Source of the DNA: Rhizaria sp. SCN 62-66
Lineage: Eukaryota
DNA length: 49,262 bases
NCBI GenBank assembly: GCA_001724265.1
Contig: MEDY01000216.1
Span: 1 to 49,262, forward strand
Reading direction: 5' to 3'
Positions 398 through 40,314 of this stretch are shown here, piece after piece. The notes under the pieces are model-generated. The model was given only the letters and a program-made list of their open reading frames with translations. It did not search any database and was not told where the DNA came from. Both the position numbers and the translations under genes were made by a program. Within the stretch, counting starts at the first letter, position 1; each line of letters starts with the position of its first letter.

Positions 398-602
398 ATT
401 AAAGCTATTCACGTCCGAAAACAGACAAATCGATTCAAACCAGATCTGCTCCTGTTCAAATTCGGGAAACAGCCCGCGCACGCAACCGTTGCAGGGCTGG
501 ACCGAAAAAAGGCAGCGACACAGAAATGTCACGATATCCAACTTGAAATCAAAAGTGAACCTTTGTATTACATATCATTTGCTAAATAACATAATCATTG
601 TT

Positions 603-3600: not shown

Positions 3601-5840
3601 TAGAGCGCCTCGAGCAGCCGCGGGAAGGACAGGTACGCGTGCAGTGCGGCCTCCAGCTCCGCCGCGGGGACTCCTGTCGCCGCCGCCGCCGCCAGCGCGG
3701 CGGGGGACAGCACCAGGTTCGCGTTGCTGCCGTTGCCGCTGCTGCTGCAGCCGCTGCTGTTGCTGCTGCTGCTGTTGTTATTATTGTTACTGTTGCTCAC
3801 GTGTCCGCTGTTGCGTGCACCGGTACCGTTGGCGCGCCCGTTCGGCCCGGCCACAGCGGCGTTGCCGGGGCCGGCGGCGGCGTTGTTCGCGGACTGGCGC
3901 GCGAGCGGGTCGCCCGTGGCGGCGGCCCACGCGGCCGACGCTTCATCCTCGAAGCCCGAGATGGCGGCGGCCGAGGGCAGACGCGCGATGCGCGCCAGCA
4001 TCGCCGGCTCCGCCAGCGCGGCCGCAAGGTCGCGCGCAAGCGCCGAGGCCTGCAGCAGCGCGGGGGGCGGCCGCCGCAGCACGTGCAGGCGGATGAGGCC
4101 GCGCGCGTCGGCGTCGAGGGCGTCGAAGACCGCGAACAGCGCGCGGGCCTCGCGGGGGGAGAACTGGGTTGGGGGGAAGCGCGCAAGGCAAGGGGGTTGA
4201 GGATATGGAGATACGGTGAGACAATACTGATTGATGATGATGTTACGCTAGCTAAATTTTACAAAACAACTCAAGAGATCACTGGAAAACAGAATATGGT
4301 AATGAAATTTGTTAATGCGCACCTTCTCCGAGAAGCGGAAGCGAACCATGGCGCCGGAGTTGAGACTGCCCTTGCCGCTGCCACTGCCGCTGCCGGACGC
4401 GCCGGCGCTGCCCCGGGCCCGCGCGCGGCGGCCGCTGCCGGGCGCAGTGCCGCCTGCCGCCGCGGGCGCAGTTGCCGCTGCAGCAGCGCTCGCAGCGGCC
4501 CTGGGTTGCGACTGTTGCTGCTGCTGTTGGAAACTGCTCGAGGACTGGCCGCCCCGCGCGCCGCCGCCGCTGGAGGCCCCCGTGAAGGAGCCCAGTCCCA
4601 GCAGCGCCAGCGGCGACGGCAGCGGCTGCCCCCTGTTGTACGCGGCGCCACCCCCGCTCGCGGCCGCCGCAGTCGCCGCCGCAGTGAGCTGTGGCGCGAA
4701 CCCGAGCGCCGAGGCCAGCTCGCTCGCCGTGAGCCCCGCGGCGCCCGCACGCCGGGCCTCGGACGCCACATGCGCCAGCGCCGCCGCCAGCGCGCCCGCG
4801 CCCGCGCTCACGGCCGCCGCCAGCGCGGAGGCCCGGTTCGGCGTGCTCTCTGACAGGAGCAGCAGCGCGCGCGCAACGTCCTCCTCCGCAGCGCCGCCAG
4901 CGCCGCCATTGCCGGCGGCGGCGGTGCTGCCGAACACGTTGGCACTCGCGCCGCCGCCGGTGTGCAGGGTTGGGAAGGGGGCAGCGGGGAGCGCGAAGAC
5001 GCAGGCGACCGCGTTGGCGACGTGCGCGAACAGGCGCAGCACGCATTTACGCGGCATGCCGCCCCGGCCGCGCGCGCGCCCACGCACGCGGCCACCCACC
5101 GCGCCCGCGCTCGCACCCGCGGCCGCAGGCGTCAGCGTCGCAGTCGTCGATGCAGCAGCAGTGGCGGGAGTGGTTGCTGCAGCGGCGGCGTCAGGGCTCG
5201 CGGCGCCTCCAGCCGCGGCAACTGAGGCGCCGGGAGCGCCCTTCAACGGCGTCGCCGCAGCGCCGCCCGCGGCGGGCTTGCCGGGGGCCGAGCGCGAGGG
5301 CGGGCGGCGGCTGCTGAAGCGGTACGTGGCCGCCGCGGCCGCGGCCTGGTCGTGGCCATACGCAGCGGGACCCGGGCCGCCGGCGCCGGCGGTGGCGACG
5401 GCGCGGCCGCCCGCCGCGGCGGCGGCGGCGGCGGCGGCGGCCGTGGCGGCGGTGGGCCCCGCAAGCGCGTCCGCGTCGAGGTCCTCGGGCGCGAGCGAGA
5501 AGAGCGCGCACAGCGCGTCGGCCTTGGCGCGCGGGGCGGCGTCGCAGAGTAGCACCAGCACGGTCACCAGGTGCGCGAAGGGCACCGTGGTCAGTGGCGG
5601 CACCGCGCCCGCGCCGGCGGCGTTGGCGGCGGCTGGGGACGCGGCGGAGAGGTGCGCGGCGAAGAGCGCGGGGTCGCCGCCGAGCGCCTACCACACCGCG
5701 GCCGCGGGCGGCGAGAAGGAGCCCACCGCCGGCGCGGGCGGGCCCGAGAGCGACGGGGACGGGAGCGGCGGCGCGGCGGCCGCGACAGGGCTCGGCACGG
5801 CGTCGCCGTCCGCCGGGAAGGCCAGGTCTGCGTCGACGTC

Positions 5841-5883
<43 letters not shown>

Positions 5884-6281
5884 AAGTTACTGTCGGTGTT
5901 GCTGGCGGGCGAGAGGGGAAACTGTGGGGAGCCGGGGCCCACCGCGACGGCGGCAAGTGGGCCAATAAACGCGCGCGCGGCCGCGCCGTCGCCCGCGGCG
6001 CCGATGCGGAGGTCCGCGGGGATGAGCTGCGCGATGTCGGGGACGCGGCCCAGGCGGGCGTTTTGCGAGCCCGCGGCCTGGGGCCCGCAGAGGCGGAGGA
6101 ACATCACGGGGTCAACGGCGTAGCCGAAGCCCGCCTGGTGGCGCTCAAACAGAGGCGTCAGGGCGCGGATGTCGACCAGAGACCAGCGGCCAAAGTGGCG
6201 CAGGGCCGGGTGGATGCAGTCGGCCCAGCACCGCACAGGATCCTTGTGGGCCTCCAAGAGCACATCCAAGATGTTGCCCAT
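603..6281 (-). CDS. Large EF-hand-containing low-complexity protein (~1794 aa); exons 6281-4323, 4163-2090, 1954-603; internal in-frame TAG at 5690-5688
   Basis: ORFs 5688..6281, 4248..5603, 2067..4082 and 603..1940 join through two phase-compatible GT-AG introns and read-through of one TAG. EF-hand-like segments: ARALFAVFDALDADARGLIRL, VFDLNTADSDSLVSAADLL, ARAGGGRVSKEELL, DATGAVSEADFRLFL. The N-terminus MGN.. is a possible myristoylation site. Ends in TAA. Confidence 0.72.
1955..2089 (-). other. spliceosomal intron (135 nt)
   Basis: AT-rich island, GTACGT...CTCTAG; phase 1 joins DP-G-LLRP. Confidence 0.85.
3288..3345 (-). repeat. (GTGCCC)n hexamer repeat encoding a His-Gly run
   Basis: Tandem GTGCCC units seen directly; translates as HGHAHGHGHGHGHGHGHGH on the minus strand. 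Confidence 0.9.
4164..4322 (-). other. spliceosomal intron (159 nt)
   Basis: AT-rich island, GTGCGC...CCCAG; phase 0 joins FSEK-FSPREA. Confidence 0.85.
5844..5882 (-). repeat. (GCT)n trinucleotide tract encoding poly-Ser
   Basis: Pure GCT run on the + strand, read as AGC codons in the minus-strand gene. Confidence 0.9.
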
Positions 6282-6602
6282 GGGAGACCTGTTTGATCGT
6301 CCAGAAAGGATTTAAGAAAATAAATGAATATTTGTAAGTTTGAATTGTCTAAACATTGAATTACACGTCTTGGAGATGCTACTGGCATGTGACTTGATCA
6401 GATTTCAAAACTGGCTTGACGATCAGGCTAAACCGTTTCTTTCGACCATGTACACGAGGGAGAGTTCAAAGTCGAACTGAAACAAAGCATAACTCACTTC
6501 AATAGCCATTAAGTGATAAATTAGGCGCGGATTGCGATACCTGTGTTGTTCATTTTTATAATCCCTTTTTACTGCTTTTAAATTTGTTCTTGAATAGGGC
6601 TT

Positions 6603-8021
6603 ATGAACCGTGACAAGCCCGCGGTGGAGATGCCCGAGGTGCGAATCGACCCCGTCAAGTTCGCGCTCGACGACTTCGGTCTCGACGACGACTGGCAAAC
6701 GCTCACGCACGAAGACGTGCGCGACCTTCAGAAGCTCTTCGAGTTCTTTGTCGCCCAGGTACGCCCTTATCATTCTCTTCAACACTCCTCTCCAAGTAAC
6801 CACCTTTCGATCGCCTGCTCTGTTCATGACTATGCTCATTATCTGCTCTGCTTGACCCAATACCTTTCTGTTTGCTGCTCGCGTGTGCATTTTCCTGCGC
6901 AGAACCCCGATACGGTGGACCCCGCGGATGAAGAGGAGGACGACGACCCGACGGACGACGAGGACGACGCCGCCGCGCTCGTGGGCTACCCCAACTCATC
7001 CTCGCTCAACAACCCCTCTGCCACCCAAAGCTCCGGAGCGCTCTCCGACGGCAACGCGGCCTTCTCGGCATCAGGCCCCGTCCCGGGCGCGGTGGCGGCG
7101 GCGAGCAAGCCGAAGCGGCCGCGCGTCTTTTCGACCCGCGGCGCGGCGCGGCTGCTGCAGGCGCTGGGGCTCTTCCTGCCCTTCCGCGACGTCCAGCGCA
7201 TGCTCAACGACACCAAGCGCTACATCGACCACGTACGTCCGGCAGTCATGCAACCGCTACTCAGACTGCGCGGTGTATCTTGTGTGATCATGAAATATGT
7301 CATTCTATGTTGATTCCCAACGTCATCGTGCTCACCTGTCTCCGCAATTTCCACAACTTATTCTTCGTTTTTATTAACAGGGCCGCCCCGCGGGCGCGCT
7401 TGATGCCGGCCTGACCTCTGCCTCGTCTTCTGGCGGCCCTGGCGGCGACCCGGCGTCCGCAGACGGCGGCTTTTATATCCCGGCCTCTGACGTGCGCGGC
7501 CTGACGTACGACGACTTCGTCATGCTCTATGCGCTCGCCAGCAAGGAGCTCTCCACCGACCGCGAAGTACGCCAGATTGTTATATATGTGTTTGTGTAGC
7601 CGTGCAATACGAAATCGCACATTCGTGTAATCGCACTCATCACTTCACTCGTAGTCATGTTCTCGCCTCTCTCACGCATGCCTTGTTTTCACTCACCTTG
7701 ACTCGATGTCTCCATTGTCCTCGCTCTCCTTCACTCCATCCTTAGGTGCGCGAGGCGTTCCGGTTTCTGGACGACGACTTCGACGGCTTCGTCGAGGTGC
7801 CGAAGCTGGTGGCCGTGTTGGGCCCGCTGCTGGGGCTCGACGCGCCGCGCACGCAGGCGCTGCTGCTTAAGGCGCGCGCGCCCGCCGCGGCGGGCAAACT
7901 GGCCCAGACCGGACACGGCGCCGCGCGCGCGCAGGCTGCGCAGTCGGCGCTGAGTCCGCAGGACTGGCTTCAGACCGGCAAGATGTCCTACGCAGAGTTC
8001 GTCGAGTTCCTCAGCATGTGA
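6603..8021 (+). CDS. Calmodulin/centrin-like EF-hand protein (~315 aa); exons 6603-6758, 6903-7232, 7381-7566, 7746-8021
   Basis: Three phase-0 introns: GTACGC..CAG 6759-6902, GTACGT..CAG 7233-7380, GTACGC..TAG 7567-7745. The spliced product has a calmodulin-like order: LTHEDVRDLQKLFEFF ... LLQALGL..DVQRML ... LTYDDFVML ... EVREAFRFLDDDFDGFV ... GKMSYAEFVEFL. Ends in TGA. An extra 5' exon is not excluded. Confidence 0.85.
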
Positions 8022-8535
8022 GGCGAGGGCGGTGTGCTCGCTCGCTCAGTCCCACTCACTCACCGGTCACTTGGTAATGGTGAAGCGTTGTAATTCGTGA
8101 TGTTATATAGCAAGTCGTTTTCTTTCGTAGTCTTAGTTTGTTTGATTTATCGTTTCTTTTGTCATGTTTTACTGTCCCCGAAGCTGGACAACAACCTTTA
8201 AGAATGTTGAATGTATTAAGCTTACATCCAACTATAAAATCGTGGATAATACACATATCAGCACATATATCACTGTTATAATCATACCTAAATATAAATT
8301 CAGTCATCGAACCTCATATGTAGGCACTTGACGAAGCTTGTGTCGCGATAAATAGCGCATTCTCACTAGTCAGTGTTTAGTGTGTTTCTAACAGTGCACA
8401 TCCACGCACAGAAAAGAATCGAAATCGCACGCGAGACAGTAGTAGAGCAATGGCCAGTGCTGAACGTGGTTTGTGTTGCAAAATACATATAGACAAGGCT
8501 TTTTCTGTCGATAACGGTGTCAGAGGGTGAGTGGC

Positions 8536-9126
8536 TCACTTGGTCGCGCTCGAGTCAGCCGGAGCAGCGGCGGCGGCGCTAGCGTCGCCGGCGGCCGGGG
8601 CGGTGCCGGGGGCGGGGAGCGGCCAGGTGCGGCCCGTGGGAGCCGTGTCAACGTTCTTGAGGTAGGGCGCATGGCTGACGATGCCCTCGAAGTCCTTTTG
8701 CGTCATGCGGCCGCGCGTCTCGCGCGAGCGGTTGATCATGTGCTGCGGGGTCGACGGAGTGAAAAGAGCATACAGAGGTGAGATTTAAGCAAAAACAAGT
8801 AAATTGGTACGATTCGCAGTCTTGAATAAGACTTAAATATGATATCTCAGAACCATTTGCGAAATAGAGCGTATGGTGCGATATAAATGGTGTGAAAGTG
8901 AACGAACCTGGAGGTTTTGTGAGGTGACGACGGCGCGCTCCTCGAAGACGCGGCGCTCCTCGGGAGTGAGGTTAGCAACCATGCGCTCAGAGGAGGGTTC
9001 AGAAATGAACTTGACGCCAAGGTACGTAGGAACGATAAGGATCATCGATGCCAATGTACCGCGCACGAGGCGTTGCATGAAAGTCAGCTCCTTAATCGGG
9101 TTCACACTCTTGACGAAAGTGGTCAT
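8536..9126 (-). CDS. Small single-TM protein resembling the Cbp4/UQCC3 cytochrome bc1 assembly factor (~141 aa); exons 9126-8908, 8742-8536
   Basis: Intron GTTCGT..CGCAG 8907-8743 (165 nt, phase 0). A hydrophobic helix (GTLASMILIVPTYLGVKFI) is followed by EPSSERMVANLTPEERRVFEE, which recalls the Cbp4 motif PxxEELIxxLSPELRxxYE. The family call is tentative. Ends in TGA. Confidence 0.6.
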
Positions 9127-9451
9127 GTCTTTCTATGATTTAAATGCACATGTATGAGAGTGTAAAAAGACGATCAAAATTGAACATTGTTTTTAAACTC
9201 AATTCTATGTATCAACGCGCCGCTGATGCTCAGACAACGGCACATCTGGTATCTAAATAACGTTTGTCGGCTGGAAGCTCAGCTGCGGCAATCAAGCTCA
9301 CTCCACCACAAACCATGAAATCAAGTGACGCGCATCGAAGTTTGCGTAGGTACGACTAAATATCGGTATAACACGCAACGCGTATATTTTAAACCTGGAG
9401 CTCAAGGTGTAGCACTAAATATGATAGTTATGGCTGTTGGAAGCTATGATG

Positions 9452-10907
9452 TCACCAAAGTGCCAAAGGGAGATCCATGAGCACCGTGACCGCAGTCTCC
9501 GCCCCGGCCGCGCCGGAGCCACCCGCGCCCGCGCCGCCCGCCGCCGCGCTGCCGCCCGCGCCGCCCAGCGGCCCTGCGTCGGCGCCCCAGAGCGCGCGCG
9601 GCCAGAGCTGGTCGCGCGCCGCAGTGACGGCCTCAACCGCCATGCCCATGCCTTGGCCGGTGGTGACAGTGACGGTGTGTGGCTCCCGCCCCGCGCTCGC
9701 AGTCGCCTCCATGCATCCGCCGTCGCTCGCCGCAGCCACGCCTGCTGTCATGTCTGTTGTCGGTGCTGCTGTCGGCGATGTTGGCAAAGCGGGGCCGTAG
9801 AACGCGGGGTCGATCCAGAGCGGCACATCGGGGCGAGGCAGCGGCGTCAGCGCGGGCCGCAGCAGCCACTGCGCGCCGCCACCCTTCCCCGCGCCAGAGC
9901 CAGAACTAGAGCCAGCGCCAGAGCCAGTGTCAGCGCCAGGGGCACTGCATGCCGTGGCGTCAGCGGCGTCAAGCGCGCTCTTGCCGCCAACGACACCCGC
10001 GCCCGCGCTCGCAGTCGCGCCCCCGGGGAGTGCAGACGGGCTGTTGTGGAGAGAGGTGCGAAGCCTGAACGAGGCTACAGCGACGGGGGCGGCGGCCGCG
10101 GCGACGGCAGCGGCGGCGCGCGCGGCTGCAGTAAGTACAATCTCCGCAGCCTCCGCAGGCGCCAAAGCTGTGTCTTCATTGTTATTGCTATTGTCACTGC
10201 TGTCCGCGACGGCTGACGCAATGACGTCTTCGAGCATCTCGAGCAAGGGCCGTGTCGGCAGGCCGCGCGCCGTCACACCGACGGAGGCGTCCACGGTCGT
10301 GCTCACAGTCACCCCGCAGCCGCCCACGGTCGCCCCCGGTGCGCTCGCTGGCGCGGCACCGCTACTCCCAGTCACGGGGAAAGTTGGACTGCTTGCGTTC
10401 GCGCCGGCGCTTGTGTTGGCGCCGGCAGCCGCGGTGATTGTGGTCGCGCCGACGGGCGGCAGCAGCGGCACGGTACCCACGGTCACCGTAAGCGGCACGA
10501 CAAGCTCCCGCGACGGATCGTGGCGGCTCACGGTCACGCCGCTGCAGCAGTGGCAGACAGGCGCGGCCGACGCCGACGCCGGCGCCGCACTGTGAGCTGT
10601 GTCCGCAGGCTCCGCGCCCCATGGACTCAGAGTCAGGGTTAAGCCGCCTCGATAAGGACTCGAGCCGCCCTGTCGTTGTGGCGCGCAGTGCCGCTGCGGC
10701 GGCCCGAGCTCGTAGCGCACCACGGGCAGCGTGCCCAGGTCTACGTGCGCCAGCTCGACGAGGTCCAGCGCGGCCGTCGCCGCAGCGGTCGCCAGGGTGG
10801 CGGCGCACGCCGCAAGAAGGGCGCGGGCTGCGCCATTGCCCGCACTGCAGCCGGGGTAGGGGGCGACTGCGCCCGAGTCGCCGACCTGCGGCAATGAGCG
10901 TTGTTGT

Positions 10908-10939
<32 letters not shown>

Positions 10940-12370
10940 ATGTTGCCGTTGTTGCGGCTTGAACGGACTGGCGCCGTGCACTCCACGCCCGCCCTGTCCG
11001 TCTCTCGTGTGCCCCTCGTCACCGCCCACAGCAACGCCCACCACACAATCGCCGCCAGAGCCTCTGTCAGGCCGCACGTGGGCGTCGCTGACGCCCGCCG
11101 CGAAGCCCTGTGCGTAGACAACTAGCCCGCGGCCGTAGCGTGGCGCGTAGGATGACAGCTGGCCCCGCACGTGTTCCGCGTGCGTGCCCGAGCTCGCCCA
11201 CAGCGCCTTGGAGTCTACCCACGAGTACGCCGCGGTCGGTACCACCGCGCTCGCGGCCGCCGCATTCGCGACCGCGGCAGCGCTGCCGGCGGGTTTGGGG
11301 GACGCGGCGGCGGCAGCAGCGCCGGCAGCAGACAGCGGCAACGGCACCGATGCCGATAACGACGACGATGATGACGACGACGACGACGATGACTGGGAAG
11401 GCAGGAAAGGGGAAGGAAATGACGGTGACGCAGCGCTCGCGTGCTGATGAGGAGACAAAGGCGCCGGGCCAAAGGCCGCCGCACTGTTGCTGCTATTGTT
11501 GTTGCCGCCAGTGCCACTGTGCGCGTGTGATTGTGAGTGCGAGTGCGCGTGGAGGGGGAAGGGGAGCGGCAGCGGATAGGGCAGGAGCACGTCGGGCGTG
11601 CGCGAAAGCGCCGCGGTGCGCATTGAAGACTCGGGGATCGCGGGGAAACCCAGCGAGGTCAGCCGCAGCAGCATGTGTTGTCTAAGCAAATGCGGCAGAC
11701 AGGAATTAAATTTAGGATGGCGTGAGCATGAGGACATGAAAGGCGAGATATGCTATAAGCATCGGGTCAGACCAAAACAAAGACAAAGGTATCTCGTGAA
11801 ATAAATCAAGTTAAACAAATGCATGGTGCTACAGTTCGTTACGTACTCGTAGAGCTTGCCGACGATGCGTCGCACGCGGACCGAGTGCGGGGAGCTAGCG
11901 TCGACCCAGCCTGCCGCGGCCCACATCTGCCGCCGCACGCCGCGCTCCGTGCGCGCCAGCGCAGCCGCTGCGGGGGTTGCAGGCGCCGCCAGCGCATGCG
12001 TCGGCGCGGGCGGCGCAAGGAAGCAGGCAAAGACATCCGTGGCTTGGACGTGCGGAGGCAGGAGCGCGCGGAAGGAGTCGGTCTGCGCGAGCGCGCGGGC
12101 CAGCAGCGAGGGCGAGTACCCGCGCGCCAGCGCCACGGAAAGGATAGACCGGGACGCGTCCTGCGCGAGCTCTTTGTGAATCTGGAAAAGGTGCTTGCGG
12201 ATGAGCGCGGACTGCTGCTTCGAAGCGGGCTGGCTCGACTGGGAGTAGATACTCAGTAGCGCATTGTAGCTCACGCCAGTCGCCTGGTGCAGCGCGGCAA
12301 GGTCGCCCTGCGAGCCCCGTTGCACTACTTCAACAAGAAATTTTGCGGAATGCTAGGATAAAATGCTCAT
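9452..12370 (-). CDS. CDIN1: CDIN1/C15orf41-like (TPD domain) PD-(D/E)xK nuclease with a long low-complexity C-terminus (~917 aa); exons 12370-11847, 11681-9452
   Basis: Family motifs appear in order: ALLSIYSQ, GYSPSLLAR, GKLYE, LGFPAIPESSMR..SRTPDVLLPYP, WVDSKA, QLSSYAPRYGRGLVVYAQGF. Intron GTACGT..TTAG 11846-11682 gives LYE-QHML. The start at 12370 needs TAG read-through at 12355-12353; an alternative start is 12485 with an extra intron. Ends in TGA. Confidence 0.82.
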
Positions 12371-12602
12371 CGTGCCTGGCAGTCTAATAAATTTGCTTTG
12401 ACGATGAGGACTCCGAGATTTTCAACGATGAAGAAACAATGGCATCAGCCCTCTCTCGGTTCGCGCGAACTTGCCACAAACGCATCTTTGTTTGACAAAA
12501 CAAAGATGTGCTACTTGAAGAAACAGTTTGGTGGTGCAAAACCACTGTATTATGGCCCGTAACTAAGTATTCTTCCCATATTAATTATTATAAATGCATC
12601 TA

Positions 12603-14977: not shown

Positions 14978-15441
14978 AGTGATTGACGGACGAAACAGCC
15001 CAGGCATATTCGTGAAAATCCTTATCTTGCTTGCCCCACTGCCAGAGTCGCAGCAGCGCCGAACAGTTTTCAAGAGGATATCAACAAATGTTTCGGTGCT
15101 GGAGACAAGAACTGTCGCGGCAAAATGTATATTTGGCTTTGACGTTGTTCGAAAAAAATATGTTTTGCCGTCCTTGTTCGGGTGGGCTCAGGCAGGTTGC
15201 CCTGGAGGTGACCGTTGGCAACCACCTACGAAGACTTGACTTCAATGAATCTGGCTCTCAGATGATACCGATGCTTGTATTGTTTGCGTCAGGTGGTGGC
15301 AAGTTTGTGGACGCATGTTTCTCTCTGTCCTTGACACTCTCTCACATCCTCTCCTCTCGTACATGAATCTTCGCATCCAGTCTCAAGCGACCTCCAGACA
15401 ACACAAGAAGTCGCTCTCTTGCGTCAACTACCGTTGATTGC

Positions 15442-19305: not shown

Positions 19306-19635
19306 GCAACACAGCAACTCGACTGAAACGCACTGCGCGCGATCAGAAAACACATGGGTTATCCAAGTACATGTACATTTTTTATATAGTTCAGATTTTT
19401 TTTTCATCGAGAGAAATAAATGAATGCCTCATTCTACTCAGAATCCCGCAATCCGCTACCTTTGACACGGCTCCACTCAAGTAGTTCAAGAGCACGCAAT
19501 ATGAACAAATAAATCAAGACTATATTGAAATAAAACAATCACAAAAGTAAATTAAAACTATGTAAAGAGAACGGAGAAACAAAAATGAAATGGATCATCA
19601 CAAAACTCTGCATGGCTCATGCGTTTAAACTATGT

Positions 19636-25368: not shown

Positions 25369-25853
25369 GTGGCGCGGGAAACGGCCGAACAGGCAATGGA
25401 ACGAAGGGAGTGGAGTGCTGAAGTGTGTGGGGGAAAAGACGTCTGCAAAAAGAATCGGAAACACATTTGGATTGAGGTGTGAAGATTTATAACTTAGTGT
25501 TTGGAAATATCAACAAACGCAACTGTTCGTACACCCAGATAAATTTCGAAATGTCGATACATGTACTTCGCAATACTCGTGTTTAGTCTGCTCGGGTAAC
25601 AGCTCGTTTAAACCAACCGCAAGCAAGAGCTGGTCCGATATAGCCGTTAGTGCTACGAAGAAGCGGTGTTCGCTCAGCGTTTCACGTGGTGATACCGTAA
25701 TTATACAGTAAATTCGTAAAATATCTACTCTATCGTGTGTAGCGTGACTTCTTATAGTTGTTATTCAAATTGTATTTCTTCAAAACTTGTTATTTGTTCC
25801 TTCAACCCGTACCGCGGTTCCAGCTCTTCGACCACTAGAACTGACGACCCGCC

Positions 25854-28800
25854 ATGAGCGACACCGAGCCCACCACGCTCACCGGCGCACCTATCCACGT
25901 GCAGCCGCGTCTGCTCGACACAAGCGGTCACACTGTAACCGCTGAGCCGCATTACATTGCAGCTGGGACCCTTCCCGTTGCTCTGTCCCGCGCCGCATCA
26001 GCTTCCCCGGCTATGTCCGCTTCCTCCTCTGCCGCGCCTGTCGCCGTCCCCGCTGTCGAGCCCGGTCCAGGCTGCGCGACCGGCTTTGGCACCGCTAGCC
26101 TGCATGGCCACACCCCCGCTGCGCACTCACGCACGCCGTCCTCGCTGCCGCCCTCGCCCGTGCCGCACGTGTCGCACTTCACGGGCGACGCCAATGCGAA
26201 CAACACCGCGCACCAGCAGCAGCAGCAGCAGCCCCAACAGCAGCATCCGTTCTCGCCCTCGCCGGCTGCGCTGCCCATGCCGCCTGTTGCGCCGGGCGCT
26301 GTTGTGACCGACAGCATGCGCTACATGAACGACTCCGACGCGTTTGAGTCCGAAAACGGCCACGCAAACGACAACAACAACGACAACGACCAGTGCAATG
26401 ACGAGCCTGAGCACGAGCACAAGTCCCCCAGTCTTCTTCCCGCTGCCACCAACACGAGCGTGAACGTCAGCGCTAAGCCCTCTGTCTCAGCTTCAGCCTC
26501 AGCCTCAGCCGCCGACTCAACCTACAGCCCCCCCTACTCAAAGCAGTCGCAGTTGCAGCCGCAGCAACAGCACTCGGTGCCGCCGTCGCGGGGCTACTCC
26601 TTCACGGCGTCCCCGGGCCCGTCGATCCCCGCGGCTGCGGCGAACGCGTCACTGGGCGCGCTGGAGCGGCGGCTGGCGCAGGAGGCGGCCCGCAGCGAGC
26701 GGCTGCACGCGCAGCTGCTGACCGCCACGGCCGAGGCCGACGCCGCGCGCCGCGACGCCTCCGCGGCGGCGTACCAGCGCGACGCGGCCGCGGCCGAGCT
26801 CAAGGCCACGCGCGAACGCTACGGCGAGGCGCGCGCGAAGCTCACCGCGGTGGAGACCAAGTTTGCGACCAATACGGGCGGCCCGCTGATGGCCGCTCAC
26901 AAGCAGATCGGGCTCCTCAAGCAGCAGGCCGCTGACTTGGAGCTGGAGCTAGCCGAGCAACGCGCCGCGCGCGCACAGGAGGCTACGGCGGCGGCGGAGC
27001 AACGCGCGTACGTGGACGTGCTGAAGCGCGCGCTCGCGGTGCGCGCAGCCGAGGTGGCGGCGGCGCTGGGGCAGGCGCCCGTAGACGCGCAGGCCGCGCT
27101 GGTGCTGGGCGGCGTCAGCTGCAAGACGCTCATGCACGTCGCGGGCGTCGCACGGCAGGGCGCGCTGCAGGAGGACCTGCGCGCCGTCACAGAGCGCGCC
27201 GTTGAGCTGCAGTCGCGGCTGGAGCGCTGCGTCGCCGAGGGCCAGACCGCGCTGGCGGGCGCGCTCGCGCAGGCCGAGGCGGAGCGGCAGCGCGCGGCCG
27301 ACGCGGCGGCGGCGCGGCTGGCCGACGTTCAGGCGCGGCTGCGCGGCATTGCCGACGGGCTGGCGGCCGAGCTGACGGCGGAGCGCGAGGCGCGCGCGGC
27401 CGAGGCGGCAGCGGCGGCGGAGGAGACGGCGCGGCTCGCGCAGCAGGTGCGCACCCGCACCGTGGAGATCGAGTCGCTGCTCACGGTCATCGACGACTGG
27501 CGCGGCAAAGAGGCCGCGGGTCGCGAGCGCGAGGCGGCGGCTGCGACAGAGGCGGCGCAGCAGCAGCAGCGGTGGGACAGCCAGGAGCTCGCGTGGCGCC
27601 AGGCGCTCGACGCCGCCAACGCGCGCATCACCGAGGTTACCGAGGCCTACAACACGGTCGCGCCCGCGGCAGGAGAAGCGCCACAGCTGCGCTCGCTGCT
27701 CGCAGGCGCCACAGCGCGCGCCACGACGGTCGAGGCCGCGCTGACCGAGGCGGCCCGCCAGCGCGCGCGCCTGTGCCGGCGCATCGCGGCGCAGCGGGCC
27801 GCGCTGGCTGCGGCTGGGGACGTGCTGGCGGCGCACGCCGCAGCCGCGCCCAGCGTGCACGCGGCCGTCTCCGCGCTTGTCCACAGCGGCGGCCACGGCG
27901 GCGTGCGCGCGAGCACTGGCGCGACGTCGGAGCTCAGCGACGCCGCGGGCAAGGTCGCCGCCGAGGCCGCAGCGTTAGTGCGCGCGCGCGCTGCGTTTGC
28001 GACTGCGGCCGAGAGCCTCACGGCTGAGTTCTGCGGCAAGGCTGACGGCAACGACAGCTGTGCCGATGCTGACTGCGACGATGGCGACAACACTTTCTCG
28101 CAAGAGCGCGCAGCCATCGCGTCCGCGATTGCGGCTGCCACGGCATTGGCCCCTGTGGCCGCGACCGAGGCTGCCGCAGCGCGCCGCGCCTTATCTGAGG
28201 CCTCCGCGGCTGCGGCCGAGTCCGCCGCGCTGGCCGACCGCCACGCCGCGGCCGCCGCGCGCGAGACGCGGGCCGCGGCCGAGGCGGTCACGCAGCGCGA
28301 CGCCGCGCGGCGCGACGCGGAGGCCGCGCGCAGGGACGCCGACGCGGCGTACAACGCACGCGGCGATGCGGAGCGCGAGGTGGCCGCGCTGGCGGGCGAG
28401 TTTGAAGCGATCAAGCGCGAGGCCGCGGCGCGCGCCGGTGCGGAGCGCGAACTGCGCGAGAGCGAGCTGCGCGACCGCGAGCAGCAACAGCGCGACCGTG
28501 AGCGCGACCGTGAGCGCGACCGCGAGCGCGAGCTGAAGGACCGTGAGGAGCGCGAGCGTGACGAGAAGGAGAGCGCGCGCCGCGTCTCGCTTGCCTCGGC
28601 CGCTGCCGCGGAGGAGCAGGCGCAGACGTGGCGCGCGCGCGCGCGCGAGGCCGAGGCCGCCGCGGCCTCCGTGGCCGACGCCGCTGCGGCCGCGGCCGAG
28701 GAGGAGCGCCGCCAGGCCGCGCGGCGCGAGGGGGCGCTGCGGCGCCGCGCCGAGGCCGCCGAGCGCAGGCAGGCTGAAGCCGACGCCGAGGTGGAGCGCG

Positions 28801-29366
28801 CCAGGGCCGAGGCCGCGAACGCGAAGAAAGAGCTCAAGCGCACTGTGACTCTGACGACCAACGCGAACAGCAGCAACAGCAGCCGTTACGATGATGGCAC
28901 GTTTGAGCCCAGGACTGCGGCAGCTGCCGCTGCTGCTGCCGCTGCGGCCGCCGCCGTGGCTGCCGTGACCCCCAAGAAGGGCGCTCGTGGCCTAGGTGAC
29001 AGCAACAACTACGGCAAGGGACATAGTTCTAGCCGTGGCAGCGCAAGTGTGCACTCGAGTGACAGCGATGATAATGAGAACGACTACCGCCGCAGTCGCC
29101 CCGCCCACGGTCACTCTGCCCACAGTCGCGGCGGCGTTGAGTACCAAGTGAGCGGCGAGATCTGCATCTCTCCCCGCAAGTCTGCTCACGGCCACTCTGC
29201 TGCCCAGCGCAGCACCAGCGGACAGGCGCGCAAGCAGCTATTTGACGGCAGCAGCCACGGCAGCTCGCGCCATAGTAGCGGCGCGGGGGCTGAAGTCGGT
29301 GGATTGGACGCGCGCATGAAGCGCATCCAAGAGACATTTGCCCGCCTCAAGGCTGGCCGTCTGTGA
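25854..29366 (+). CDS. Hypothetical long coiled-coil protein (1170 aa)
   Basis: Single long ORF with start context CCGCCATG, extensive A/E/R-rich helical heptads and an RDRE repeat. Ends in TGA before an AT-rich spacer. Confidence 0.85.
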   Translation: MSDTEPTTLTGAPIHVQPRLLDTSGHTVTAEPHYIAAGTLPVALSRAASASPAMSASSSAAPVAVPAVEPGPGCATGFGTASLHGHTPAAHSRTPSSLPPSPVPHVSHFTGDANANNTAHQQQQQQPQQQHPFSPSPAALPMPPVAPGAVVTDSMRYMNDSDAFESENGHANDNNNDNDQCNDEPEHEHKSPSLLPAATNTSVNVSAKPSVSASASASAADSTYSPPYSKQSQLQPQQQHSVPPSRGYSFTASPGPSIPAAAANASLGALERRLAQEAARSERLHAQLLTATAEADAARRDASAAAYQRDAAAAELKATRERYGEARAKLTAVETKFATNTGGPLMAAHKQIGLLKQQAADLELELAEQRAARAQEATAAAEQRAYVDVLKRALAVRAAEVAAALGQAPVDAQAALVLGGVSCKTLMHVAGVARQGALQEDLRAVTERAVELQSRLERCVAEGQTALAGALAQAEAERQRAADAAAARLADVQARLRGIADGLAAELTAEREARAAEAAAAAEETARLAQQVRTRTVEIESLLTVIDDWRGKEAAGREREAAAATEAAQQQQRWDSQELAWRQALDAANARITEVTEAYNTVAPAAGEAPQLRSLLAGATARATTVEAALTEAARQRARLCRRIAAQRAALAAAGDVLAAHAAAAPSVHAAVSALVHSGGHGGVRASTGATSELSDAAGKVAAEAAALVRARAAFATAAESLTAEFCGKADGNDSCADADCDDGDNTFSQERAAIASAIAAATALAPVAATEAAAARRALSEASAAAAESAALADRHAAAAARETRAAAEAVTQRDAARRDAEAARRDADAAYNARGDAEREVAALAGEFEAIKREAAARAGAERELRESELRDREQQQRDRERDRERDRERELKDREERERDEKESARRVSLASAAAAEEQAQTWRARAREAEAAAASVADAAAAAAEEERRQAARREGALRRRAEAAERRQAEADAEVERARAEAANAKKELKRTVTLTTNANSSNSSRYDDGTFEPRTAAAAAAAAAAAAAVAAVTPKKGARGLGDSNNYGKGHSSSRGSASVHSSDSDDNENDYRRSRPAHGHSAHSRGGVEYQVSGEICISPRKSAHGHSAAQRSTSGQARKQLFDGSSHGSSRHSSGAGAEVGGLDARMKRIQETFARLKAGRL

Positions 29367-29642
29367 GACTATTGTGCTGTGACTGGAAAGGACGCTATTG
29401 TAGCGTCCGATCCGTGAAAATGTGAACGGATGGTGCGACTGTAGGCAACGAGAAGACCGTTGTCCGGCACATATGACACACTGCCAAACATAGCAACAGG
29501 AATGTTCAATGAGGCCAAGCAATGATTGAGAGTGTCAATAACAACAAAGAAATAAATTGTTTGATTCGTTTATTCATCTTGATATCAACGGCGGTGAATT
29601 GTATTTCGAAGTGTCACACAATACGTCACAATCACTGTTTTT

Positions 29643-31549
29643 TTACAGCCGCCTTTGTTGTTGCTGCTGCTGCAACATCTGTTCTTGCAGACTTACCGAC
29701 CCAGAGCTTGCAATGAGCACTACACGGCGCTTTTGGTCCGCGCCAGCAAGCCTCATCCGAATCAGGTCGTGCGCGCTCAGACGCGATGCTGCGCCGCGTT
29801 GTTGCGGGGTTGCCGCAGCGCCGCCTGCTGCCTGTTGCGCACCGGCATTCGTGTTGCCTGTACTAGTCGCGTTTTCCTTGTCCTCTGTGGTATCAGACTC
29901 GTTTGCATGCCTGCTTAAAGCGCTGCTGCGCTGTTTTGCTGTCCTTGCTCTTAACGCAGCAGCAGAAGTCCTTGTTTTGTTGCTCACAGCTGGCCCCGCT
30001 GCAGTTGCAGCGTCTAACGCCGCGCTAATTTGAGCCGCTGCCTCTGTGCCAGGTTCCAGCGCGGCCACCGGCGACGGCAGCGGCAGCGTATGCGATCGCG
30101 TGGTATCGGCCTCGGTTTTCACATCAGCACTGCTTGCTGTATCGGAAGTTTTGCGAAGAGATGAGGCAGTGACAATTGGCGATGCCGCAGAACGGGCGGC
30201 GGAAGCTACTGCAGCAGCTGCTGCAACAGCGGCGGCTGCGGCAGAGACAGGCACTGCAAGGGCGGCGCGCACAGACGCGGGTTGGCGGGGCAGGGGCAGT
30301 GGCGACAGCGGCAGCGGGGACGATGACGCCTCTGCCGTTCGAGCCCCGGCTGCAGGTGACTGAGAGCGCACCGAGTGCCGACGCCTGCTTGTATGAACTT
30401 GAGACGGGGGGCTAAACTGAAAGCTTATATCATTGCCACTTGCGTCCGAGCGAATTGTCAATGGTGATAGGCCTGCTGTTGTGCGCCCTAAATCCGACTG
30501 GCTAGGTGCAGGGTAGAACGAGAACGTTTGATCGCTCTCGTCGCCACTGTCGCTTTCGCCGTAGCGTCGGTCATTGCGCCGTCTGCGTTGTCGCTGGTGC
30601 AGACGACGCTGCCCAGTCGCGCCTAACCTTGCAGCAGCGCCAGTGCTAGTGCCCGCTCTATTTTGACTACTTAGATCATCGTCCACTTTTGTTTGCGAAT
30701 CTAGTCGCTGTGAAAATGAGTTGTGGAGTGAGAGCGCGCGGAGGCCCCGGGTATCGAACGCATGACCAGCCCTCCCGCCCCAGTTCGCCAAACCACTCCA
30801 CGCCGCCACTAGCGCGGCAAGTGAGATGAAAGTGGTGAGGACTACGACCGCGGCCTTGCCTGCATCACGTCCTGGCAGCAGCGAGGGGAATGGCGAGGGG
30901 GCCCAGTCGCCAGCGCCCGCCCACAACCAGGGGGCAGCGGAGCGTGCGAGTGATGAAGGATGGAGTTGAAGATGAAAGATTGTAACTGGCTCGTCAAGGG
31001 TCACAGTGAGTGTGGTGGGCGCAAAGAGTGGAGACGAGAGTGGGAGTACAGTACTTAAGCTGGCGGCCTTGGTTGCAGTGTTCATGGGAACTGATGAGGG
31101 GTTCAGAGAAACATGCGCACGCAGCGATGAAGAGAAAGTGGTGTTTTCTGGTAGAACCCAGTCTGCAATGATTGGGCCTGTGCGCAAAATGTCAGTTGAC
31201 AGTTCTTGTGAGATGTGAACAATACGAAACTATTTGTGCTTCAAGTCATGACGTGAGATTCGCTTAGTAAGCTTAAGAACGTACGGTATGGTGTCCAGGA
31301 GGTATAGAGCGTATCGAGAGTTTTCACAAGGCGAGTAGATGTTTCATCGTTTACGTAAAGAAACGTGATGACGACTGGAAGTGAGAGCGCTGGGTCAAGT
31401 GGCGCAGTGCAACTATCATCAGGAAGCACGATACCCTTCAGGAAAGCCGCCTCGTTGAGCGAGATTGGAGTTGTCGCTTCATCTGCCAATATGCCTAAGC
31501 AGAGACACAATACCCCTATAAAAAGCAGCAAAGTCTCAGCAAGACCCAT
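29643..31549 (-). CDS. Predicted type I membrane protein (~599 aa); exons 31549-31285, 31177-29643
   Basis: Signal-peptide-like N-terminus (MGLAETLLLFIGVLCLCLGILA). Intron GTACGT..CTGAC..CACAG 31284-31178 is phase-compatible. TM-like segment AAVVVLTTFISLAALVAAWSGL precedes a disordered tail. Ends in TAA. Confidence 0.72.
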
Positions 31550-31785
31550 TATCTTTATCGAGGTTTAGAGCGGCAAAAATGAGACTGGCTAAAACTACTT
31601 CAAGTCGTTCTCGTCCCACTGGCTTGTTCGCGGTTGCATGATTCAGATTATTTTCAAGTTGTTCGAAATGCAAATAAAGTTAGTACTGTTTATTAAAGCA
31701 AAATGAATCTCATAGTATATATCAAATCGATAATAGAGGTTTGAATAGTGTTTGATGTCACATCATATTCCTCGTATGATCCCAC

Positions 31786-34700
31786 TTAAAGATCCTTGAC
31801 AATCGTCGCGGCTTCCTCGGCTGCGAGCGCGCGCACAATGCTCTCCGCCCTCTCGGCTGCCACCGCAGCCGCGGCTCCCCATCCCGCGTTGGCCGCTGCC
31901 TCACTCATTGCAAGCCGCGCGATATCGCGTGCAGACAGTCCTCGCGGCCGGAGCAGCCACGCCCGCGAATCCAGCCCCACCTCGCTCATAGCGCTCGAGT
32001 TGGCCCCCGACTGTGTCGCGACCGTGGCGCATCCGCCAGTGCGCAGCCAGTGCGTGAGCAGCGGCGCGAAGAGCCGCCACCGCAGCGTGCCGAGCCTGGC
32101 CGCCGCGCTCGCGTCCCCGCCCTCGCTGCCGCTACCCACGGTCACATCATGAGACGGGGGCGCTGCGACCGCGCCGGGAGCGGTGAGCGCGGCGACCCAT
32201 GCCCCAGCCCAATCCGCGAGGCACAGCGCGGCCTCCTCTTGGCTCCGCGCCGCCGCAGCGAGCGCGGCCGCCGCGCTCGCCGGGGTGGCCGCGTCGCCCG
32301 CGAGAGCGCGCGCGAGGGACGCGAAACTAAGCCGCGTCTCGAGCGCGGTGGCGAGCCGACCCGTTGCAACGTGGAGGTCGCTCAGGGCCTGGAGCTGGAG
32401 GGACAGCAGCGAGAACTCACTCGCTGTCGTTGTCGTGAGAGGAGTGGAGCTTGAGTTGGCGCTAATGGCGGCGGCAGCCGCAGCAGAGGGTAAAAGCTGT
32501 TGCGGCGACGGCAGCACAGACAGTGCACGCGCATAAAGACACTCCGCAGCAGCCTCAGCAGCGGCCTCAGCAGCCGCCCCGTCGCCCATTGTAGCCTCCG
32601 CAACCACTGCCTGCAGCTTCTGTGTCGATGACAACGCCGAACCGCCTGACTTGTTGCCGGCAACGGCCGCGGCTGCAGCAGCGGCAGCGGTGGCTGTGGC
32701 GCTGGCGCTTGCAGTGGCCGAGGCCGTGGTGGGGTGCAGGGAGGAGTATTCCTCGGCTGCCAGGAACGGCCGCTGCCACGACACGTACGCCCACGACGCG
32801 GGCACGCACAACCCCTGTGCCGCGCTCGCAGCGCCAGCGGCCGCGGCATCAGCCTCGGCGGCGGCGACAGCGGCGGCGTCGGCGTCGGGCTCGGACTCGG
32901 AGATTGCGCGCAGAAGAGGCACGATGGCGTGCGGCGCGGTGGCGAACAGGAGCTTGACGAGCGACTCGAACACGCCTGGGGCCTCGCCCGCACTTGCGCT
33001 CGCATCAGCGCCGTTGTTAGCGCTGCTCGCGCTGGTTGGGCTCTCGAGAAGCAGCGTCGCGGTGAGCGCCGCTGCGCCGGCGGGCAGCGCGGGCAGCAGC
33101 GCGCGCACGCCCGAGGACAGGTAGTGGTACGACGGCGCAAACGGGCACGGGTGCGGCGACGGCGGCTGCGCGGCGCGCCACGGCAGCTGCACCGCCCACG
33201 CACCGCTCGCAGTCGTTGGCGTCGCCGCAGAGCTGCTCGCAGCCGTAGCGCCAGTAACGCTGTCACTGGCCGAAGTGTACGTGGACAGGCGAGTGGAGTC
33301 AATCGCTGCAAAGAGCGGGCCCAGCGCCAGCGCGGCAGCGGCGGCGGCGAGCGCTGCGCGGGGCCTGGTGGCGACGGCGGCAGCAAAGGCGGCCGGGCAC
33401 AGGCGCGGCAGCGGCAGAGGCGGCGGCGAAGGCGAGCGCGAGTACGAGAGCGGGGACGGAGACGCGTTGCGCGAGTAGTAGCTGCTTGTGTAGCTGTCGA
33501 CTCCGTGGGTCTGATGCGACTGTGGCTGCGGATAAGGCTGCGAAAGAAGGGATAGTGTCGATTGGCCAGCGTAAGCTCCCTGAGCTTTGTTTCTCGACGA
33601 GAACTCGTCGATCGAGACACCAAACATGCTGCTCTCCCCGAGATTAACTCCGACGCCGCGCAGGCCCAGCGCGCCGGGGCCCTGTGCACTCGCGTGGCCG
33701 TGGGTGGACACAGCGTGACTGCACGCGCGGGACGCAGCAAGCGCCTGCAATGACGCAGGCTCAAAGCAGGAGAGCGCGTCCAGTGACAAAGTACTGAAAG
33801 CGTCCAAGTGTGCAATCTGTTGCTGATGCAGCTGCTGGTGCACGAAGCCTGCATCGCGCGCTGTAGCAGCGGCAGCTGTGTTATTCGCAGCAGTGGAAGT
33901 GCTAAGTGCAGTCGCTGCCGTGAGCGGCGCCGGCAACAGCGAGACCACATCGGCAACCATGCCCAGCCCTTCGCCCTCTCCGTCCTCGCACACAACGGCG
34001 CCAGACTGCGGCTGCAATCGAGAGCGTAGCGACTGCGAGCGCAGAGACCGCGCACCCGCAGCTGACAGAGCACGCAGCGACCGCGCGGAATCAAGCGCAC
34101 TCACAACAGCCGCAAACCACGGCTCCAGAGTGCGGCTTAACTTCGAGTAGCCCTCGGGCGGCGGGGCCGCGACGCCGCGACCGGGAGCGCGGCCGCTGGC
34201 AGCTGTCGTCGGCGAGAGTGACATCGCGAGAGCGCGCGCGCGGGAGAAAGACGTGGGCTGTGTGAGAGCGAGTAAGAGCAGCAGCAGGCGGGCAGCGGGA
34301 GGTAGAGCGGAGCCGACAGCGGTGGCGGTGTCCGAGCCAGAGTCAGCTGCAGCAGTGGAGGCCAAAAGCGCAACAGCAACAGCCGATGTCAAATTGACGC
34401 TGCCATCACTCTTGATGTTTGGAGACGCTTCGGTGTTGATCGCGGCAACAGCAGCTCCCCAGGCGCCCGCGCCCCGCATCGCCGCAGTTTGTGAGTGACT
34501 GTGAACTGCGGCGCCGCGTGTCGAAATGGCCCCCTGTGGTGCAGCCTGCGACAGAGGCAGCGAGCGGCCAAGCGCAGCAGCGACATCGCGCCACCGCGTC
34601 GCAAGTGCGCCCGCCCTCTCACCGGCAGCAGCGCTTGCGGAGCCGCTGGCAACAGGCAGTGAGCGCCGGCCACCGGCCTCCGCGTTCGTGGCCGCGAGAG

Positions 34701-37250
34701 CGAGCGCAAGCGCGGGGGCCGAGGGGCACAAGCACCAGCCCACGGGTCCCGGACCGTGGCCCTGACGTGGTTGGCCGATCCGGCTGCGGCGGCGCTGGCG
34801 GCGTCCGCGCGCGCGGTGCTGCTGCGGCGACGAGTGTGGGTGCGACATCGACTGCGAGCGCGACTGCGAATGTGAGTGCGTCAGCGCGAGCGTGAGCGGA
34901 CGCTGCGGCAACTGGGGCTGCAGCAGCGGAGGCCAAGCAAGACCGGAGAGCGGTGCACCCATCGCACCGACCCCAGCACGAGGGTGGGGTCCTGAGTGCT
35001 GCCACTGTTGTTGCTGCTGGATGTGTTGCTACAATTGCATCTGGAGCGGCAGCGATGCCCGCAGCGCACGCACCATAGCTGTCTCGAGCACTGAAGCGCC
35101 TGCACTTGCGGTGGCAGCATGACAAGGCGTGAGGAGCAGAACGTCCTGGCTGCCGCCCTTGGCCTGCAGCAGCGGCCGCAGCGGCGCGGCGTCAGCAACC
35201 ACTGACGCGGAGATAAGACCGCCGGTCGCGAGCGAGAACACCTTGACGACCGTGAGCACGGGCCGCGCGCGGCTGCAGCGGTGGCGACTGGCGCGCTTGC
35301 CGCGACTGTGCGCGGAGCCAGACGCCGCAGCAGCGATGGCGGCGGTGGGCTGATTCTCAACGCCGACCGTGTTGTCAGATGCGGGATCCTCATTGGTACC
35401 ATTGCCGTGACCTGAAGATGTGACCGAGCTATCTGCGGGGAAACGCGAGCAGCGGCAGACGCAGTCGGCGTGGGAGCCCACAGTCGGGCGCAAATGCGGG
35501 GGCAGCAGCAGCAGCGGTGACGCAAGCGACACGCGCGCAGTGGCGGCTTGTGCGGGCAAACGACAATAGACAGGACTCGCAGAAGCAAGAGCCAGCGCGG
35601 CGTCGCCGTCAACAAGGGCGCACCGACAAGGGCATGCGCAGGGAAAGCGATGACAGCCCGTGTCTGTGATGCTCTTGTTGCTGTTTGTGGGCGGGTACGA
35701 GAAGAGAGGTGCGCACACAACGGCGACACCCGCCGCAGGCAGCACCGACAGTGATGTGAGTGACGCGGCTGGGCTCGCGCCAGGAACGTCCAGGCTCGCA
35801 CTATCATGGAAAAGCGGGAGCGATGGGAACGACTGCAGAGCCCGTGCACGCGCGCTCGCACGCAAAGTGGTGACAGCCGCCTTCACGGAATGACCGTGGC
35901 TGTGCGCAGGGGCTACGGTAGCAACCTCACCGTACTGCACCAGTGTCGGAGGGGCTGGAACCGCAGCAGCCGTAGAAGCTGCGGGCCAGACGAGTGCCCA
36001 CGGTCCAGTTCCTGCACTTGCTTGAACAGGTGCGCTCGAGTGCGTGCTCATGGAAGACGGGGGCGCACACCACACCCTGTTCAGGGTCGACGCTGCGCCG
36101 GAAGTGAACGCTGAGGGCAGCGGAAGTGGGCGCGCACAAACACGCAAACCTGCATGTGGAGCCACAGTTTCACAGCTGTTATCGTCAGAACTTGCTTTAC
36201 CGCTGCTGCTGGCACTTAGAACGGCAACGATGTCTGCGCTCGACAGATAATACAAGCACGGGTCCCATCCGTCGCCCGCTGAGGGGGCGCCAACGCCTGA
36301 CGCGATTGCGTTCGCGTCGTTGAGCAGCAAGAACGCGCCGTGGCGGCCGGCCCACGCGCTCTGCAGCGGCCGCGGCATCGTGGCCAGCGCGGCGGCCGCG
36401 GGGGCGCGCGCCGGATTCCCCGGCAGCACGCACACCGCAGCGGATGCGGCGGGTGCGGCGGCGCTGCCCAAGAGCGAGAAGGGACACACGGGGATCGAGG
36501 TGACCAGAGCGCGCAGCGCCGCGCTCGCAGCAGCTGCCGCGCCCGCCGCCGCTGCCGTGGCAGCAGCAGCGTCGGCGTCGACCGTAGCGGTGGCGTCGGT
36601 GGATGTCGAAGGCGCATGGACGATGGGCGAGTGCGAGTGTGAGTGTGACAGAGTCAGCGACAGTGCAGGCGTCTGGAGCGGCGCTGGCGACAGCGCCTGC
36701 AGCTGAGCGTGGGCCGAAGATGACGACGACGACGATGCGTTGGCGCAAGCGAAATGAGTGCGCAAAACGAGGGACAGCGACAGCGGTGCCCGACTCACGG
36801 TCACGCCGCTGCCCCCAGTTGCTGCAGTTGAGTCCTCGCCGTCAGCGGCGTTGGGGCCGCAGGTGGGGCAGTAGTGGCAGGCGCGGAGCCGGGCCAGTGC
36901 GAGTGCCACGTCCTTGACCGCGCTTGCATCACCTGCGGCCGCGGCCGCAGCAGCAGCGGCAGCGTAGCCAGCACGCGCATTGGCAATGGCAGCACCTGTA
37001 GGCATGCCGGTGGGCGCCGCCGAGAGCGCCGATATGAAAGCGGTCGTGGCGGGGGCAGGGAAGGCCACCGGCATCGTAACAAGGCCCAGCTCCGCGCCCT
37101 TGCGCGCGGCTGCGGCGTCGGCCTCGCGGGCATTCACATCATCGTTAGCATTGGGCGCGGAGGCACTCGTGTGAGAGTTGGGGAGAGTAATGGGTGCGCT
37201 GCAGAGAATGCATGGCACCACGACTGCCGCTGCAGGCGCCGCGGTCGTGA

Positions 37251-37294
<44 letters not shown>

Positions 37295-40200: not shown

Positions 40201-40314
40201 TGAGAAGGTGGAGGACGAGAGAGGGGCCGAGGCAAACGGGGAAGGAAAGCGGTAGCCTGTTGATAAGCCGGAAGCGGGCGCGGCACCATAAAAAGCGTCG
40301 CGGCCGGCCGACAT
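31786..40314 (-). CDS. Giant hypothetical low-complexity protein (~2842 aa) with an internal in-frame TAG at 35031-35029
   Basis: ORFs 35029..40314 and 31786..34962 are in the same frame, separated only by a TAG and 22 sense codons, with no AT-rich spacer. Family not recognised. Ends in TAA. Confidence 0.65.
37250..37298 (-). repeat. (CGT)n trinucleotide tract encoding poly-Thr
   Basis: Near-perfect CGT run, read as ACG codons on the minus strand. Confidence 0.9.

Follow-up and report, generated by a model that had tools for sequence, protein, structure and literature searches.

Is UAG still a stop codon in the organism that carries contig MEDY01000216.1 (Rhizaria sp. SCN 62-66)? The window, as we call the whole 49,262-base stretch of this contig that was analysed, encodes 11 complete genes, A to K. 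A sequence-only reading of it had pointed to three TAG triplets on the minus strand, each in a different gene with coding-like sequence continuing in frame, and had proposed that UAG specifies an amino acid, probably glutamine (Gln), while UAA and UGA remain stops. All three triplets are present, together with the peptide contexts quoted for them:

5688-5690, minus strand: site 1, an in-frame TAG, codon 198 of the 1,794 of gene A
12353-12355, minus strand: site 2, a TAG that is likely the last three bases of a candidate intron in gene D
35029-35031, minus strand: site 3, an in-frame TAG in a Gln-rich tract, codon 1,762 of the 2,842 of gene J

Sites 1 and 3 lie within continuous coding sequence that is conserved or frame-consistent, and they are neither gene ends nor introns of the local type. 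Apart from these in-frame TAGs, two in 11 genes, no model contains an internal stop or requires a frameshift, and TAG terminates none of the genes. This combination is most simply explained by translation of UAG: the codon would specify an amino acid at rare places within genes, and termination would be left to UAA and UGA. We give this reading an even chance. Ribosomal reading of both UAGs, the transfer RNA (tRNA) used and the residue inserted are all matters that we infer, and two sites in one window cannot prove a genome-wide code change.

Site 1: a TAG between conserved blocks

The first site falls in the first exon of the following gene:

603-6281, minus strand: gene A, exons 6281-4323, 4163-2090 and 1954-606, TAA at 605-603; 1,794 codons, no Pfam family

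A scan of all six frames of the window counted 1,898 stops, of which 150 are isolated, with at least 60 stop-free codons before and after. The site-1 TAG comes top of this set of 150 for the coding score of its two flanks (22.4 and 31.8 bits), and codon-usage scoring, with five other genes as the training set, gives high values in frame right across it. Beyond the TAG, 1,596 codons follow without a further stop. The next in-frame ATG lies about 220 codons on, and the coding score is high throughout; there is therefore no gene boundary or second start at site 1.

An exhaustive HMMER search with gene A exon 1, the TAG entered as X, returned a single match at E<=0.001 among 1,835,955,588 representatives. 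This protein, P0003 (667 residues), is encoded on a single 15,957-bp contig from a JGI/IMG metagenome and is 46% identical to gene A over 329 residues. The alignment is ungapped over the TAG, with 'VGSFSPPAAAVWXALGGDPALF' in gene A opposite 'VGTFSPPAAEVWAALGGDASLF' in P0003, and places alanine (Ala) opposite the TAG. Conserved blocks flank the TAG and reach a common exon end, 'RFRFSEK', past which the P0003 gene call runs into an intron of its own. The ungapped alignment and the conserved flanks therefore exclude an intron at site 1, as well as the end of one gene or the start of a second. (A model of the locus as two genes was rejected on this alignment and on the absence of a start codon for about 220 codons.) On the evidence of alignment and coding score, site 1 is best regarded as a real in-frame coding TAG, the strongest of the three cases.

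Other approaches yielded little for this site. An AlphaFold model of P0003, built on a two-row alignment, had a mean predicted local distance difference test score of 34.7 and was unusable. The exact product of the first open reading frame (ORF) of gene A was not found in the public protein collection. Contigs of public sequencing runs, X3, X4, X6 and X7 among them, were aligned to positions 1-20000 of the window, an alignment with many spurious matches and joints rich in guanine plus cytosine (GC); among the run contigs listed, none spans 5688-5690. One joint in run X3 (5687>10088) has a 21-letter side and a depth of 51.6, and was treated as noise.

Site 3: a TAG in a continuous frame

31786-40314, minus strand: gene J, a single frame of 2,842 codons, ATG at 40314, TAA at 31788-31786; no Pfam family above the curated cut-off

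Scored in blocks of 150 codons, the gene J frame comes out best of the six in all 19, and its only stop is the site-3 TAG; the other five frames mostly contain several stops per block. After the TAG, 1,080 codons follow without another stop. Close to the TAG the coding score is low (4.2 upstream, -10.0 downstream), and frame continuity is the single line of evidence for site 3 as a coding TAG. A split into two genes is unlikely: no AT-rich spacer was found near the site, the frame is the same on both sides, and the next ATG comes 67 nucleotides (nt) after the TAG.

The surrounding tract is rich in Gln and histidine: within 12 residues of the TAG, in both directions, there are 9 Gln, a density that only 0.97% of positions in the 11 genes attain. 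This setting suggests that the TAG may descend from CAG. The density would fit a nonsense change from CAG to TAG as well as it fits TAG read as Gln. Word-index searches (residues 1450-2150 for near lengths, 1640-1930 for shorter lengths) found no orthologue over site 3, and the exact products of the two halves of gene J were not in the public protein collection.

Introns and site 2

Could the TAGs simply be spliced out? The 11 complete genes were modelled with nine introns and total 13,964 codons; all 11 exon models are in frame, with no frameshift needed anywhere. The modelled introns are 107-179 nt long, with GC 0.36-0.49 and 53-69% pyrimidine on the coding strand; donors follow GT[AGT][AC]G[TC], acceptors are YAG, and a CTCAC-like motif precedes the acceptor by 30-60 nt. 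Their donor scores run from 5.1 to 12.4 and their acceptor scores from -5.9 to 7.1. The set was picked by AT-richness, and GC-rich introns may have escaped it; no ORF break in the window requires one.

An intron of this local type can be drawn at site 2:

9452-12352, minus strand: gene D, TPD-motif family domain (PF14811), intron 11846-11682, TGA at 9454-9452
12353-12470, minus strand: candidate gene D intron, 118 nt, donor GTTCGC, acceptor TCCTAG, GC 0.47

Upstream of the site-2 TAG the frame holds five codons only (MSILS, from the ATG at 12370), and the TAG closes an acceptor-like 'ttttatcctag'. The donor (score 7.3) and the acceptor (-0.5) both fall within the ranges of the known introns, and the GTTCGC at 12470 is the only donor of score 7.3 in 18 intergenic strand stretches. 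It resembles the GTTCGT that opens the gene C intron, which itself looks confirmed. The proposed first exon, 12485-12471, would comprise an in-frame ATG and four codons; the adjoining gene E has a similar layout, with a first exon of 33 nt. The TAG of site 2 is thus probably the 3' end of this candidate 118-nt intron. Because of the five-codon upstream frame, the acceptor-like end and the good donor 118 nt upstream, it is not counted here as an in-frame coding TAG.

In the DNA of the runs, site 2 is covered by X3 record 5 and by X4 records 12 and 13, with no other letters at the TAG; among the run contigs listed, no RNA piece lies over 12353-12355. A protein search with the gene D N-terminus returned the window's own ORF only, with no orthologue for site 2, and a PDB sequence search with the same N-terminus gave chance matches only (E 0.34). 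The gene D ORF itself is present in public assemblies as P0005 and P0006.

Extended to all three TAGs, as intron ends or insides, splicing is a very improbable explanation. It suits site 2, where the donor scores 7.3, the intron would be 118 nt at GC 0.47 and an in-frame ATG stands 15 nt upstream of the donor; short first exons do occur, as the 33 nt of gene E show. At site 1, an intron would delete conserved sequence, since P0003 has a residue opposite the TAG and is conserved directly on both sides. The best TAG-ending candidate there is 39 nt long, with a donor of 2.9, an acceptor of -5.6 and GC 0.77. Site 3 offers in-frame candidates of 45 and 162 nt from a GTGCGT, with GC 0.64-0.65 and a donor score of 4.2; neither has a CTCAC-like branch motif, and 45 nt is less than half the shortest known intron. 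Across both sites, the candidates have GC 0.64-0.77 and donors of 2.9-4.2, below all nine known introns.

The sequence-only reading had taken all three TAGs as coding while warning that two might be splice acceptors. The coding claim survives for site 1, through the P0003 alignment, and for site 3, through the 19 of 19 blocks; it lapses for site 2. The warning probably applies to site 2, and at sites 1 and 3 no local-type intron fits.

Stop-codon use and the rarity of TAG

Gene ends in the window bear out what had been reported. Six models end in TAA (603, 19303, 19636, 29643, 31786 and 48571) and five in TGA (8019, 8536, 9452, 12603 and 29364); none of the 11 ends in TAG. Nor is any internal TAA or TGA needed, as had also been claimed: the only internal stops in the 13,964 codons are the two TAGs of sites 1 and 3.

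Several observations nevertheless weigh against translation of UAG as a sense codon. First is its rarity, together with the small number of terminators, both already flagged as caveats by the sequence-only reading and both substantiated. TAG makes up 2 of 13,964 codons (0.14 per 1,000), or about 0.4% of the 511 Gln codons plus TAG. As a neutral Gln synonym it would be expected about 55 times (from the TTG:CTG ratio of 70:497 applied to 395 CAG); the observed use is about 28 times lower. The absence of TAG from 11 terminators is a small sample: with a TAG share of terminators of 22%, which is our assumption, we calculate a chance of about 6.5%. Second, TAG accounts for 1,711 of the 2,680 one-step sense neighbours of stops (64%), and for 483 of 708 when only transitions are counted. 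Random nonsense would therefore mostly produce TAG, and that both internal stops are TAG is weak evidence. Third, the 667-residue P0003 gene call contains no stop, and thus gives no sign of TAG use in its lineage. Finally, there are only two sites, both in proteins without a known family; no RNA contig among the run contigs listed lies over site 1 or site 2; and a tRNA scan found no tRNA gene in the 49,262-base window. The proposal that UAG is sense, with UAA and UGA as stops, accordingly draws support from sites 1 and 3 and from the 0 of 11 TAG ends, and is held back by 2 TAGs where about 55 are expected.

Such low use, far below the level of an established sense codon, is compatible with a standard code in which both TAGs are recent nonsense (loss-of-function) alleles of a clonal lineage and genes A and J are truncated. 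TAG is the most reachable stop in genes with a GC content of 0.79 at third codon positions (GC3), as the neighbour counts above indicate; the tract around site 3 is rich in CAG and CAA, and a C>T change there yields TAG; and the contigs of several runs are nearly identical, as fits one clonal lineage. Proteins A and J are also long, of low complexity and without known family, but two nulls among 11 genes would be a very high rate. At site 1 the change would cost the protein 89% of its length, including downstream sequence conserved with P0003. Null alleles usually include a large proportion of indels, yet the 13,964 codons require no frameshift. The frames remain free of further stops for 1,596 codons after site 1 and 1,080 after site 3, and no gene ends in TAG. 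We regard the nonsense-allele explanation as unlikely, though a real rival.

A second explanation that keeps the standard code, with UAG still a stop, has the two sites recoded singly, either by programmed or leaky near-cognate readthrough or by adenosine-to-inosine (A-to-I) editing of UAG to UGG. The rarity of the sites fits. For readthrough, tRNA-Gln is reported in PMC13192750 as a near-cognate mediator in canonical-code organisms. For editing, fungal A-to-I sites are described as preferring hairpin loops and U at position -1, so that they often fall in UAG (PMC11156358, PMC4817773). In minimum-energy folds of 41-nt windows, the A of the UAG does lie in a hairpin loop at sites 1 and 3; these folds are no better than those of shuffled sequences (z 0.71 at site 1; z -1.47 at site 3, where 22 of 200 shuffles were as good). 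Recoding in two of 11 genes would far exceed the share of such genes in fungi, and nothing places the host among ascomycetes; an Atlas query with the debranching enzyme yielded no taxonomy of use. Moreover, a UAG that kept its stop function should terminate some of the 11 genes. Site-by-site recoding is, on balance, likewise an unlikely but real rival.

Mechanism and comparison with known codes

If UAG is translated, how might this work? A tRNA with anticodon CUA would pair with UAG and not with UAA, and the release factor eRF1 would recognise UAG poorly. A CUA-anticodon tRNA and weakened eRF1 recognition of UAG are both proposed for UAG-only codes in PMC5304391. Gln as the inserted residue is a first guess only; the aligned P0003 residue at site 1 is Ala. 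At 0.14 TAG per 1,000 codons, the change would therefore be recent, or UAG decoding costly.

Nuclear codes that split UAG from UAA are rare; PMC5304391 and PMC11687900 name a single fornicate, a single rhizarian and a few lineages of ciliates. The UAG-only codes described in PMC5304391 are those of Iotanema spirale (Gln) and of one rhizarian (leucine, Leu). Among phyllopharyngean ciliates, UAG is reported to have become Leu once and Gln twice; suppressor tRNA genes are noted in two phyllopharyngean genomes, and cases were mined from environmental assemblies (PMC11687900). A ciliate in which UAA and UAG encode different amino acids is described in PMC10553269.

Iotanema spirale, a fornicate and thus likewise a non-ciliate protist, is a close parallel: only UAG is reported as sense, UAA and UGA are stops, and a CUA tRNA is proposed (PMC5304391). 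There, in contrast, UAG makes up about 8% of Gln codons and is documented in hundreds of alignments (PMC5304391), against 2 of 13,964 codons in the window and one aligned site, with Ala; this difference too counts against a sense UAG here. The window organism also differs in being GC-rich and known from metagenomes alone. The rhizarian exLh shares in-frame UAG and ends its genes only in UAA (56) or UGA (15), compared with 6 TAA and 5 TGA here (PMC5304391). Its 384 in-frame UAGs in 71 genes are all described as aligning to Leu (PMC5304391), whereas nothing suggests Leu in the window. Phyllopharyngean ciliates, as portrayed in PMC11687900, likewise uncouple UAG from UAA, but with widespread UAG and ciliate genome traits, unlike the long GC-rich genes and 107-179-nt introns of the window. 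A-to-I editing in ascomycetes resembles the present case in its genomic in-frame TAGs, its need for a full-length product and a bias to UAG that comes from U at -1; it differs, according to the same reports, in being a stage-specific change of RNA under a standard code, with UAG still ending genes (PMC4817773, PMC11156358).

Among the papers listed in searches on UAG reassignment and on eukaryotic cases assembled from metagenomes, none concerns a GC-rich wastewater eukaryote with a UAG-only code. If real, the present example would be a further case of UAG-only reassignment, in a different type of genome and with far lower UAG use. It would represent an independent origin, in an unrelated and uncultured GC-rich eukaryote, and its very low UAG use would make early steps of reassignment directly testable. 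A bolder reading, which we consider doubtful, is that a stop-to-sense change of UAG has been caught in progress in a previously unsampled lineage of GC-rich, non-ciliate wastewater eukaryotes, with the codon gone from gene ends and starting to appear inside genes. If true, this would be an intermediate stage that models of codon reassignment predict and that is rarely observed. There is also a practical side: gene callers that assume the standard code split or drop genes with an in-frame TAG.

The window, its host and its genes

The host is a eukaryote, as its lariat debranching enzyme, TPD-motif protein, DUF155/RMND1 protein and GT..AG introns attest. In 2-kb steps the GC content of the window ranges from 52 to 78%; AT-rich spacers and introns alternate with GC-rich coding stretches, and every delimited intergenic stretch is AT-rich. 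Among public runs, the stretch 4000-13900 turned up in metagenomes from bioreactors and wastewater, with at least half of its sampled words in 4 runs and some part of it in 11. From this occurrence, the window is taken to be part of an uncultured organism. Relatives proved elusive at the DNA level: metagenome contigs searched with P0002 and P0003, viral contigs scanned with P0002, and genome contigs scanned with P0002 and the window's debranching enzyme gave no match. There was no Rfam match in the window.

Besides genes A, D and J, the gene models are:

6603-8021, plus strand: gene B, EF-hand protein, three introns, TGA stop
8536-9126, minus strand: gene C, intron 8907-8743 with donor GTTCGT, TGA stop
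12603-14977, minus strand: gene E, lariat debranching enzyme (PF05011, PF00149), 33-nt first exon, intron 14944-14787, TGA stop
15442-19305, plus strand: gene F, TAA stop
19636-25368, minus strand: gene G, TAA stop
25854-29366, plus strand: gene H, TGA stop
29643-31549, minus strand: gene I, intron 31284-31178, TAA stop
41800-48573, plus strand: gene K, DUF155/RMND1 domain, TAA stop
1-397, minus strand: a partial twelfth gene, ATG at 397-395, 46-nt first exon, a GTACGT intron of about 255 nt (351-97), next exon running off the left end

The N-terminus of the partial gene is presumably chaperonin-like; a Pfam search with its 32 residues found nothing. Pfam families at E<=0.01 are also absent from genes A (searched as three exon pieces), F, G, H and I, and gene J has sub-threshold matches only. 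The count of 7 of 11 proteins without a Pfam family includes gene C, which was left out of the Pfam scan. In the 11 gene models, the Ala codon GCG reaches 99.6 per 1,000 codons, at the GC3 of 0.79 given above. The divergent spacer between genes J and K (40315-41799) measures some 1.5 kb, several times the length of the other spacers, and contains no modelled gene, tRNA or Rfam match.

Intron 1 of gene A (4164-4322, minus strand) is 159 nt long, a multiple of three, and its only in-frame stop is a TAG at 4250-4248, which comes second in the scan for stops flanked on both sides by coding-like sequence. The TGA of gene E is followed directly by an in-frame TAG (12600-12605, minus strand), and in three genes, A, E and G, the first in-frame stop after the terminator is TAG.

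The public runs add some detail on gene B. A cDNA contig of run X6 splices it at 6755>6900 and 7232>7381, the first joint being shiftable by 3 bases. Run X7, of polyA RNA, contains an unspliced piece, 6641-6909, so that its cover of gene A past the TAG (2754-3168 and 3800-4119) is not evidence of expression. A contig of run X4 differs from the window at six places within 6633-6665 (plus strand), in the first exon of gene B; four of the six fall on third codon positions in the frame of the ATG at 6603. These differences point to a related strain or species in that sample.

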